DNA of 28,897 bases from a virus (lineage: Duplodnaviria; Heunggongvirae; Uroviricota; Caudoviricetes). Numbering within the stretch: the first letter of the stretch is position 1; each line of letters opens with the position of its first letter. The notes under the pieces were generated by a model. That model did not search any database, had not been told where the DNA came from, and saw nothing but the letters and a program-made list of their open reading frames with translations. The position numbers were made by a program, and so were the translations under genes. The stretch is from the IMG/VR virus record IMGVR_UViG_2778261084_000005, positions 1-28,897 of that record; one strand, given 5' to 3'. Shown here one piece after another: positions 1,553 through 5,386 of the stretch.

Positions 1553-1753
1553 TCACGAGGACTGAAGTTTCTCGCAATTAAAATTTATCAGTTTTACTTT
1601 CTGCTCTCTGGAAACGCCTGCTTCTTTTTTACCTGAGAGCATTTTTTCGCATTCTGATTTCGTTAGTTTAGATTTTGAATATCTTGTCCAGTTAGTAGGA
1701 GTGCCACCTTCCTTTTCAATAGTGGCGGTAATTTTATACATGAACACCTCCAT
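1553..1753 (-). CDS. Small prophage protein, YdaC/RcbA-like; start ambiguous (1741, 1753 or 1813)
   Basis: 86-aa ORF in track; its 5' part overlaps the ralR frame, so an internal Met (MEVFMYK or MYKITA) is more likely the real start. Confidence 0.45.
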   Translation of the reverse strand: MEVFMYKITATIEKEGGTPTNWTRYSKSKLTKSECEKMLSGKKEAGVSREQKVKLINFNCEKLQSS

Positions 1754-1928
1754 TATTATTTCCAGTGGTTCGTTTATTTCATCGTTCGAGTGCTTCTTTT
1801 TCACTTCCACCATAACCGGTTCGGGATTCGCATCCGTTACACTTCGCTCGGTAATATCCTGAAATGGCTTTCACCGTTACTGATGGACAACCACAAAATG
1901 GACATGGTTTAACATTGTCATATCTCAT
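1734..1928 (-). pseudogene. ralR: Lar/RalR-family restriction-alleviation/toxin gene interrupted by in-frame TGA at codon 50
   Basis: Own translation from ATG at 1928: MRYDNVKPCPFCGCPSVTVKAISGYYRAKCNGCESRTGYGGSEKEALER, then TGA at 1779-1781, then 14 in-frame codons NKRTTGNNNGGVHV to TAA at 1734-1736. Recalled intact RalR is 64 aa with Trp at this position. Confidence 0.6.
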
Positions 1929-1983
1929 AATTTTTCTCATAAAAATATTTCAAGTTGGCGGTGCATTACACCGCCAGGCTGAA

Positions 1984-2793
1984 TTATTCCTCTGAATTAT
2001 CGATTACACTGTATTCCCCGGTTAATACAGAGGAATCTGCAGGATCGATTGTCAGTGGTTCCTTTTCATCCATTGATACTGCACGCTGGATCTCAATTGA
2101 TACGGGCAGATATTTGAACAGGCGACGAATAGCCGTTTTCTTTGCCATTTCTTCCCAGTGAGTTACCCACGGCCCGTTATTACCAGCTTTACTCTGGCTG
2201 CGCACCAGCTCAATCTGTTTGCGCGTCATAACTTCAAACTGAGTACCTCCGTCTTTCAGTCTTGCGACAGCATAGACGTGGGTAACAGGGGCATCTTCGT
2301 TTTCTCCTGGGCGGTGTATTAACTTTTCATCAAGGCCAAATTCGAAATTAAACTCGTCACCTTCACGGACAACACGGGCTGACAAGCTGGCGATTTGACC
2401 TGAACGGCGAGCCAGATCAATCATGCCGCGATAGCCAATGATTAGCTGAACGTTTTTTTTACCGCTCTTTTCGTTTTTATTACCAAAAGGCAGTAAATAT
2501 GCATGACCGAGGGCGCTACCGGGCTCAAGTCCGAGCTGTGAACACTGTACGATTGCACTGACAAAACTCATAGTGTCACAGTTTCCTAACGCCGGAACTT
2601 TACGAATTTCTGTGGTGGCGATACGGATCATACGTTCAGCCGTCATATGGCGTGGAAGAGCTGCTGCCAGTTGCTCTTTCATTGATGGCTGGTTAATAAA
2701 ACTAATCACGTCGTTATTTTTAATTGCTGCTGGTGCACGGTTTCCCTGAGTTTTTTGCAGATCGGCTTTTGCGATTGGTGGTTGCTTAGTCAT
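1984..2793 (-). CDS. recT: RecT single-strand annealing recombinase (269 aa from [14 protein letters not shown])
   Basis: Translation matches recalled E. coli RecT essentially along its length; the track ORF extends 19 codons upstream of the likely start. Confidence 0.95.
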
Positions 2794-5386
2794 TTGCATA
2801 TTCCTTAGCCCAGCGGGGCAGTGATAACGTCTTAATAGCTGGCCATTCATCGGTATTGAGGCAGTCAGCCAGGGTTCGCAGATTGCGGTGATATTCCAGC
2901 TGACCTGCCAGTTTTGCTTCTTCGCCCATCATGAAAATTTCAACCGGATAACGTCCGCATTCAATAGTTGTGCTGGCAACCAGAAAAACGAAAGTTGGCT
3001 GCACTCCAAACTGTGCTTCATAACCGTCACTGTAGAATGCATCCTGAACGTGATAGCGGTAGTCGTAATAAGCGGTTTTGAATCGTTGAATATCCGCCGT
3101 AGTTTTCACGTCCATGATCCAGTGAAATTCAGGGATAATTTTGTCCGGACGGCACCGACACAAAATTGCTGTTTCAGGATCTTCCCAGTAAATTGATGAT
3201 TCAGCGTGTCCGGCGCTTTCAACAAGCCATTGCCCCAGCGGCAAAGCCATAACGCTCTGATACATGAGTTCAATTTTCCGGCCTTCTTCGGCAGTGATAA
3301 CCGTTTTTCCTGTGCTTGCGCATTCCCTCAGAAACGCTTTCTCTTCTTCTTTTCCGGAGTTTGTCCGGCGGTTAAATTCAGGTGCTACGATAAAGCGGTT
3401 ACTGAATTCTTCCGGCTCAAGTACCCGGCAGTGGAAAGCGGTTCCTAAATCGAGCGTTTTTGTCTTTGTGGTGTCCACGGGGGCATTTTTACGCCACAAA
3501 TACAGTGCCGGAGTATCAGCAATGTCATCGAGCTGAGACTTACTGACACCGGGACCCGCGTGGTAATTCTCATTCGAAATTCCGTAATAAATACCTGGCT
3601 CTATGTCTTCTACGATTACGGGATCTGCGACTTCGCCAGTTTCATCACTGCAATCGCGATGCGGATCGCTGCCAGCATTCTCATTGTGCGGATGTTCAGC
3701 GCCTTCCATTTCCTCCGGATCATTTTCCTTAGCTTCAACCTGACTCTCTTCATCGAATGTTTCCTGGTATGTTGCGTCGCCCATCACCGCACCACAGTCA
3801 GGGCAGTTATCCCCGCCAGTCTGGCCGCAGGCATTGCAGGCTATTTCCGGTTCCTGTTGCACTACTGGCTCAGGTTGATTCATATCCGGGCTGGTTTTTT
3901 CCGTTTCTGGCTGGTTCTGGTACACACAATCGCGAGTCTGGATCCCCTTTACCCATTTCGGATCGTTCGGGTCGCTAATTCCGTCAACAAATTCACCACG
4001 TGATGCAGCAAGCAATTTATCGGCATCGACAGGATTTTTTGATGGAATGTTTTTCCGGGCTTCATGGAGTTCTGCCCGCAGTTCCTGATATTTCGCATCA
4101 ACAGAATTTACCTGTGACTGAGCATCCAGCGGCTGCGTGTCCTGATGATGTTCAGTTGCGTCCGGTTCCATTGTTTCAGCCTCTCCCTGTTCAACTGCCG
4201 TTGTTCCAGATGGTTGCGGTTTTTCTTCATCATCCTGTTTTCCTTCTTCTGTTACTCGCTGCGGCATCGGGGCAGAGGAGCGACCGCAGGCAATATCCAC
4301 GATTTCCGGATCAGGGTTGGCATGATCGGTTTCAGTCAGTACTTTGTTCAGATATTCAGTGACGTGCGCGGGGATGACCTCGATCCCAATTGGTGCTTCT
4401 TTTACGGACGCAACCACGATGGCGCGGGAATAATCCAGCCCGCCAGGCATGGTGATGAATTTGTCGCGGAAAACAGAAAAGGGCGGTTTATTTTCAGCGA
4501 TAATTTCCTCAATGCGTTTAGCGTGTGCCGGATGAAGGTTATAGATGTCCAGATCCATTGAACGGGCCAGTACGCCAGTGGCTACGTCGTGCGCCAGTGA
4601 CGTCAGATCGTGTACGAAACCTTCGCCGCGATCGGTGAGGTTTCCGCCGCCAGCATTAGCACCGGAAGCCGTGCGAGTGATGTGTGAAACACGATTACCC
4701 TTCATCCACTCTTTTGTCAGCAGTCCTCGATCGGTGTAGTCAGCGTTCAGGTATGCTTCGAAAAAAGCAGTTATCAGTCCCAGGTTTGAATTACCAGGAT
4801 TAGGGAAAACTTTGTCAGTGTCACGAACCAGTTTGTGGAGTTCGCGAATTTCCAGCGGGTCGAGCAGGCTGGTTTTGTGGGAAACAGCCAGGGCAGTAAC
4901 AGCCGGTAGTTCTTCAGCCCGAGCAATGTGTAATGCCTGGAGTCCGTCGCGTGAAACGTGCGTTACCGGTTTTTCGCTGCCGTGTTGAGCAAGCCAACGA
5001 ATGGGCAGTTCCTGGCCAGAAATTGGGAGTAGCATATTCTCCTCAATCTCAGTCATGTCTTCGCCGTTGACGTTGGTATTGCCTTGATAGTGAGCGTTGT
5101 CTGGTGCTGCTCCCGGTTTTAGTTCCCATGTCATGGAGTCTTTGCTGAGTTGATAGCGTTCACTCCAGGTAAAATCGATCTCACCTTCAGCGGGCAGGTC
5201 ATTAACGACAGGAAAATTCGTGGCAACAGCTTTAAAATAGCTGCTCAGTTTTTTACCTGACTTAACGATCAGGTAGTCCAGAGTGGCACAGGTCGATTCA
5301 AAATCGTTGCTTGCCCACAGGACGACGTCAGGTTCACCGGATGATTTTTTCGCTTTCCGTAACAGGAAGAGTGGTTTTGTGCTCAT
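2786..5386 (-). CDS. recE: RecE exonuclease VIII (866 aa)
   Basis: 866-aa ORF directly upstream of and overlapping recT by 8 nt; sequence matches recalled RecE. Confidence 0.95.

Follow-up and report, generated by a model that had tools for sequence, protein, structure and literature searches.

Does a ralR toxin gene with an in-frame TGA at codon 50 still make a toxin? The question is raised by the minus strand of positions 1734-1928 of the window, by which we mean the whole 28,897-nucleotide stretch of viral DNA that was analyzed. An earlier sequence-only reading had recognized a Lar/RalR-type cysteine-rich protein there, had attributed the stop to a single TGG-to-TGA change that truncates or inactivates the toxin, and had left recent inactivation and read-through side by side as explanations. 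The explanation that we favor, with a probability of roughly 0.82 and on the strength of sequence comparisons and published point mutants, is that the window carries a vertically inherited nonsense allele of ralR/lar, W50*, which has a single origin and whose 49-aa product is most likely a nontoxic loss-of-function form in a decaying prophage module, the RalR/RalA type I toxin-antitoxin pair of Rac.

The ralR locus and its prophage

The first part of the window is the left end of a prophage of the Rac family that is integrated beside ttcA, where the minus strand carries the gene string intR (1-1236), xisR (1238-1477), rcbA/ydaC (1553-1741; 62 aa, DUF1187, Pfam PF06688 at 132 bits), ralR, recT (1984-2793), which lies directly upstream of ralR, and recE (2786-5386). 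The ralR ortholog sits at the Rac position between recT and rcbA with the neighbors that it has in K-12, and the order recE-recT-ralR-rcbA-xisR-intR at ttcA is the same, in locus and orientation, as that around the K-12 Rac RalR (Lar; b1348, UniProt P33229) and RalA (RF02694). The assignment to the Lar/RalR type stood up to profile searches, in which the product matched Pfam PF14354 (Lar_restr_allev), TIGR03655, and NCBIfam NF007260, making it a Lar-family zinc-ribbon protein and the gene the ralR/lar of a Rac prophage.

The closest complete genomes, KV7 and SW07099, match the window with 95% coverage and 99.9% identity. Whereas the K-12 Rac prophage is a 23-kb remnant, that of KV7 and SW07099 runs on into lysis, terminase, portal, capsid, and tail genes. 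The Rac-family prophage of the window is far fuller than the K-12 remnant, and the closest genomes have the lysis genes essD and rrrD, trkG, genes for the small and large terminase subunits, for a portal of the DUF4055 type, for a major capsid protein of the P22 type, and for tail proteins, and, in addition, a Hok/Gef family gene (L003 18373-18528, in the locus L003 4501-37171), kilR, sieB, and ydaT. A search within the window for a second, compensating Lar/RalR copy found none. Several O26 and O103 genomes that carry the exact TGA allele have a second ralR-like place on the same chromosome, and some of these hosts may possess an extra, possibly intact ralR in a second Rac-like prophage.

The premature stop

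Translation of the minus strand of 1734-1928, starting from the ATG at 1928, gives MRYDNVKPCPFCGCPSVTVKAISGYYRAKCNGCESRTGYGGSEKEALER, a stop, NKRTTGNNNGGVHV, and a second stop, which bears out the earlier description of 49 residues followed by a TGA and then by 14 codons and a TAA. The truncated coding sequence (1779-1928, minus strand) consists of 49 codons and the premature TGA, which is codon 50 (1779-1781), and its protein is identical to RefSeq WP_001443846.1. In K-12 MG1655 the same gene (b1348) encodes 64 residues with TGG, Trp50, at this position, in agreement with the reference length and residue given in the earlier reading, and alignment shows the change at codon 50 to be a single G>A transition. 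The stop is followed by A, giving a UGA-A context. The preceding codon, CGA (1782-1784), specifies Arg, is synonymous with the AGA of K-12, and identifies the haplotype in which the TGA originated. Beyond the stop lies the orphaned 3' end of ralR (1734-1778), comprising codons 51-64, that is NKRTTGNNNGGVHV, and the TAA (1736-1734), in which the conserved N51, K52, and R53 are still encoded. These 45 nt are identical in alignment to the 3' end of K-12 ralR, so the open frame beyond the TGA is not a matter of chance, and the claim that the downstream frame is preserved holds. What is left to this segment is the role of leader and Shine-Dalgarno region (GGAGG) for rcbA.

Compared with K-12 along a stretch of about 500 bp, the window shows only four differences, namely one T fewer in a T-run just upstream of ralR (1941-1945, minus strand), the synonymous AGA>CGA at ralR codon 49, the TGG>TGA at codon 50, and codon 63 of rcbA, which is AGA in K-12 and TGA in the window. 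Within the 195 nt of the ralR coding sequence there are accordingly two nucleotide differences, and the residue encoded is the same at 63 of the 64 codons. Relative to the 64-aa K-12 protein, the window's product is therefore 49 aa long, with TGA at codon 50 and CGA at codon 49.

Two features 5' of the gene deserve mention in their own right. The T-run at 1941-1945, which has 5 T in the window and 6 T in K-12, sits between ralR and a recT-distal hairpin (GGCGGTG...CACCGCC, about 1954-1976) and likely belongs to the ralR promoter or leader. An in-frame ATG at 1938-1940 (minus strand), four codons 5' of the annotated ralR start, would give a product beginning MRKIMRYD, and the 68- and 77-aa database entries (P0001, P0009, P0037, P0045) are alternative upstream start calls of the same ralR gene.

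Prevalence and origin of the TGA allele

The distribution of the allele was determined in 5,426 complete E. coli genomes by counting exact matches to the four possible 61-mers centered on codons 49-50. The K-12-type haplotype, AGA-TGG, was present in 1142 genomes and CGA-TGG in 123; the haplotype of the window, CGA-TGA, was present in 310 genomes, and AGA-TGA in 0. Because the ralR locus occurs in about 1,900 complete E. coli genomes, the TGA allele accounts for ~16% of those that carry ralR (about one in six) and for 5.7% of all complete genomes. Among the carriers are O26, O111, and O103 STEC strains as well as human, pig, and wastewater isolates, and the exact 49-aa protein is found on at least 1,000 contigs; WP_001443846.1 is annotated in both O111 RM9322 and the pig isolate KV7, as it is in numerous further genomes. 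The sequence-only reading had named two observations that would have counted against it, a base-calling error and a reference RalR that also ends at residue 49. The former was not borne out, as an identical 61-mer in 310 complete genomes together with the protein on at least 1,000 contigs rules out an error of sequencing or assembly. A reference protein of 49 residues does exist in WP_001443846.1, though it is the product of the same mutant allele and not an alternative wild type.

The TGA was found only on the CGA49 background, which indicates, from the haplotype counts, that W50* arose once and on the CGA49 haplotype; multiple independent origins were judged unlikely given that the AGA-TGA combination is absent. 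The sampled CGA-TGG alleles, from O145 RM9872 and L73, represent a ralR/recT variant of greater divergence, and they have both CGA49 and the TGA stop of rcbA in common with the window. Since these two features are common to the window and to the divergent alleles, both are probably ancestral, such that CGA49 and the 62-aa RcbA would represent the older state, while AGA49 and the 69-aa RcbA of K-12 would be derived. Relative to the ancestor so reconstructed, the window probably differs at codon 50.

Conservation of the segment removed by the stop

The 49-aa product retains the complete CxxC...CxxC zinc ribbon of the family (C9, C12, C30, and C33), and it still scores above each family threshold: 39 bits compared with 53.5 bits for the 64-aa reading in Pfam PF14354 (threshold 28.6), 40.3 bits compared with 55.3 bits in TIGR03655, where it lies just above the threshold of 39.6, and 126.9 bits compared with 166 bits for the full-length protein in the NCBIfam RalR equivalog model NF007260 (cut-off 113). 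In the Lar family (PF14354, TIGR03655) the ribbon is followed by a C-terminal helix, and the full-length reading matches the whole model, whereas the window's product stops before the W-N-x-R motif that closes the family domain. The motif thus falls outside the translated protein, with W50 replaced by the stop and N51 to R53 lying beyond it.

How much this loss matters was judged from an exhaustive profile search that yielded 3,611 Lar-family representatives; the top 145 of these, from clusters <50% identical, supplied the 197 domains of a conservation alignment. At the W50 column Trp was found in all 185 non-gap domains, at N51 the conserved residue was found in 181 of 184, and at R53 in 163 of 178, an invariance comparable to that of the four zinc-ligand columns, which have Cys in 185-188 of the 197 aligned domains. 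The query profile itself held W, which biases the hits somewhat toward W50, but the invariance at such divergence is still strong. Homologues from Salmonella and Citrobacter keep the Trp and read R-W-N-K/R-R, and hardly any family representative ends before W50, the exceptions seen being fusions or fragments. An AlphaFold2 model of a 64-aa E. coli RalR (pLDDT 71, moderate) places strands at 17-22, 25-30, and 36-40 and a helix at 43-58, and a stop at codon 50 is predicted from it to halve this C-terminal helix. A sequence search of solved structures returned no relative, only spurious CbpD matches, and in the PDB Foldseek found nothing beyond insignificant similarities to zinc ribbons (best E = 0.26), which are uninformative on the nuclease chemistry.

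That K-12 RalR is a DNA-cleaving toxin was shown by Guo et al. 2014 (PMC4041452), in whose work changes introduced by error-prone PCR at residues 14, 37, 39, 49, 51, and 52 lower its toxicity, DNA cleavage is lost in the purified mutant of residue 52 (A154G), and toxicity disappears when residues 43-46 are rewritten. The product encoded in the window ends at R49, so that residues 51 and 52, as linked to toxicity in these data, lie past the stop. Together with the invariance of W50, the published mutants at 51 and 52 make loss of toxin function the most likely outcome. The suggestion that the TGA truncates or inactivates the toxin is in this respect strongly supported, by family conservation on the one hand and by the residue 51 and 52 mutants on the other.

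In the course of events that we envisage, translation terminates at codon 50, and the 49-residue protein so produced keeps the four-cysteine zinc ribbon but lacks half of the C-terminal helix and the W-N-x-R motif; as residues 51 and 52 are among those lost, each of them individually needed for toxicity and DNase activity according to the mutants noted above, this protein would be nontoxic. W50* is now carried by a large set of E. coli lineages, in which RalA and its pairing site would persist. A query of the literature for the natural W50* allele found no paper describing it.

Alternative explanations

Several other accounts of the TGA were weighed against loss of function. That it is a sequencing or assembly error or a selenocysteine codon can practically be dismissed: beyond the bare presence of the TGA nothing speaks for it, and in addition to the genome counts given above, which dispose of an error, selenocysteine was rejected because neither a SECIS-like hairpin nor a corresponding Rfam match was found and because Trp, and neither Cys nor Sec, was the ancestral residue. 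The Rfam search gave no SECIS or any other match in the window except RalA, and the 71-nt segment that spans and follows the TGA has no stable fold (-6.2 kcal/mol, z = +0.73), which also excludes structured, programmed read-through for practical purposes. Unprogrammed read-through is a more substantial matter. Among phages, the A1 protein of Q-beta is a natural product of UGA read-through, and natural isolates of E. coli terminate at UGA better than K-12 does. In E. coli, UGA is the leakiest of the stop codons and is decoded chiefly as Trp, by tRNA-Trp in competition with RF2, and the rate of this read-through varies with temperature and nutrition, being higher in the cold and when nutrients are limiting (PMC11126739, PMC10570021), although the high values come largely from K-12, in which RF2 is unusually inefficient (PMC11126739). 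If the near-cognate tRNA-Trp decoded the stop in ralR at a low level, the wild-type 64-aa RalR would result, and the allele would encode a strongly attenuated, possibly stress-tunable toxin and not a null. In keeping with this, the residue nearly always inserted at UGA is the ancestral one, the base after the stop is A and not the strongly terminating U, and the 14 downstream codons and natural TAA are intact. The situation resembles natural E. coli UGA read-through in reporters and in native genes such as nudL, where the UGA is likewise not followed by U and Trp is inserted, but it differs in that the ralR TGA is derived within one haplotype and that signals for read-through or evidence of selection for it were not found. 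The in-frame stop is not kept in diverged homologues, since K-12, the divergent E. coli alleles, Salmonella, Citrobacter, and all 185 domains have TGG or Trp at this codon, and the maintenance of the downstream frame is explained by the low divergence and by the overlap with the ribosome-binding site and start of rcbA. With a TGA that is derived, confined to a single haplotype, and unaccompanied by a promoting signal, we regard an attenuated toxin as unlikely, and its more specific form, in which cold, starvation, or low pH would gate the production of a small fraction of 64-aa RalR still under the control of RalA, as very unlikely; if true, the latter would make a DNase toxin that is otherwise constitutively dangerous dependent on stress. 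Trace read-through by tRNA-Trp would regenerate wild-type RalR, with no sign of programming; given the leakiness of UGA, a small quantity of the full-length protein must be produced, a point against complete loss of function. Of the two explanations originally offered, inactivation is thus retained, though not as a recent or private event for a widespread, single-origin allele, while read-through is reduced to a trace at most.

A different account assigns the 49-aa zinc-ribbon fragment an independent role without the W-N-x-R helix, such as residual restriction alleviation or dominant-negative binding of a partner. Counting against loss of function and for this idea, the product retains its four cysteines and 49 of 64 residues and still exceeds the Pfam and NCBIfam cut-offs, and the allele is a common one, found in a Rac prophage that is large and in which lysis and head genes remain; its high frequency without further decay in the 61-mer could fit retained function too. 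Set against this are W50, which is as invariant as the zinc ligands over 185 diverse domains, the near absence of family representatives that stop before it, and the point mutants at 49, 51, and 52, which are already less toxic (PMC4041452). With four differences per 500 bp from K-12 the divergence is too low for a test of selection, and the post-stop segment overlaps the rcbA ribosome-binding site. We consider such a function highly improbable. Still more doubtful is that the G>A was selected for a noncoding effect, either by improving a -35-like hexamer that drives rcbA or by uncoupling rcbA translation from ralR. A promoter scan did detect a weak sigma-70-like sequence that includes the mutated base (ATGAAA-16 nt-AATAAT, 1782-1755, minus strand), in which the change from ATGGAA to ATGAAA raises the -35-like match from 3/6 to 4/6, and uncoupling is a conceivable consequence where the rcbA ATG overlaps the old ralR stop. 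The candidate matches at 9 of 12 positions, however, with 1.9 such sites expected by chance in the region, its predicted transcript start lies inside the rcbA Shine-Dalgarno sequence, which it would destroy, and rcbA has its own GGAGG and no structure demanding translational coupling. Creation of a promoter was accordingly set aside as a chance 9/12 match. Loss of function of the 49-aa product, based on family conservation and the published point mutants, is the most likely reading of the sequence.

The RalA antitoxin and rcbA

The window contains a full-length ralA sRNA gene on the plus strand (1557-1735; Rfam RF02694, 225.1 bits, gathering score 170, model positions 1-179 of 179) that is antisense to rcbA and identical in sequence to that of K-12 MG1655, where ralA (b4714) is annotated as a 179-nt sRNA antisense to rcbA. 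A 16-nt complementarity between RalA and ralR is described in PMC4041452, and both of its sides are unchanged from K-12 in the window: the pairing site in ralR at 1791-1806 (minus strand; nt 123-138 of the coding sequence, AAGTGAAAAAGAAGCA) and the complementary segment of RalA at 1619-1634 (plus strand). The pair was located by a direct-repeat search, an inverted-repeat search for the RalA pairing site having returned nothing relevant, because RalA is antisense to rcbA and the two 16-nt copies are therefore direct repeats on the sense strand. The pairing site ends 10 nt 5' of the TGA and is still inside the translated part of the gene. As ralA is wholly antisense to rcbA, its retention need not imply that it is needed, and RalA and its pairing site have probably been kept because ralA overlaps rcbA and not because they still have a role. 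The locus would in that case be a natural example of a toxin that is lost while its RNA antitoxin persists by virtue of overlapping another gene.

The rcbA ATG overlaps the original ralR TAA (ATGTATAA), and the W50* stop moves the end of ralR translation to 37 nt upstream of rcbA. With a strong GGAGG of its own in front of rcbA and no significant structure in the region, W50* probably has only a small effect on rcbA expression. At the other end of rcbA, its TGA (1553-1555, minus strand) ends the protein at 62 aa, a length that agrees with the 61 positions of the DUF1187 Pfam model, whereas K-12 has AGA at the same codon and reads on for seven more codons to 69 aa; from this comparison the RcbA of the K-12 reference appears to have been extended by loss of a stop. 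The polymorphic position lies 2 nt upstream of the annotated 5' end of RalA (window 1557).

Annotation and other disrupted alleles

The RalR/RalA system is already characterized and the truncated allele is already in RefSeq, so the locus is nothing new in kind, and W50* is ordinary decay of a known gene. What it affects is annotation. WP_001443846.1, identical in protein and locus to the window's product, is entered as [quoted passage not shown] at 49 aa, and the truncated protein is named as an intact toxin because its 126.9 bits clear the NF007260 cut-off of 113. PGAP thereby labels it a functional endodeoxyribonuclease toxin RalR without a pseudogene mark, which is a systematic blind spot. 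In the ~16% of ralR-carrying complete E. coli genomes that have the allele, including O26/O111/O103 STEC, an active toxin is, as far as sequence can tell, very probably not made, and toxin-antitoxin surveys that rely on names will arrive at too high a number of functional RalR/RalA pairs.

W50* is not the only disrupted ralR allele of E. coli, but the others are all rare (1-9 contigs) in comparison with it. Entries P0005 and P0003 have frameshifted tails, and P0015 is a fusion of RalR to RcbA. A further fusion, entry P0012, joins RalR(1-46) to the C-terminal part of RcbA and is as expected from the loss of 172 bp between the two 16-nt direct repeats (window 1619-1806).
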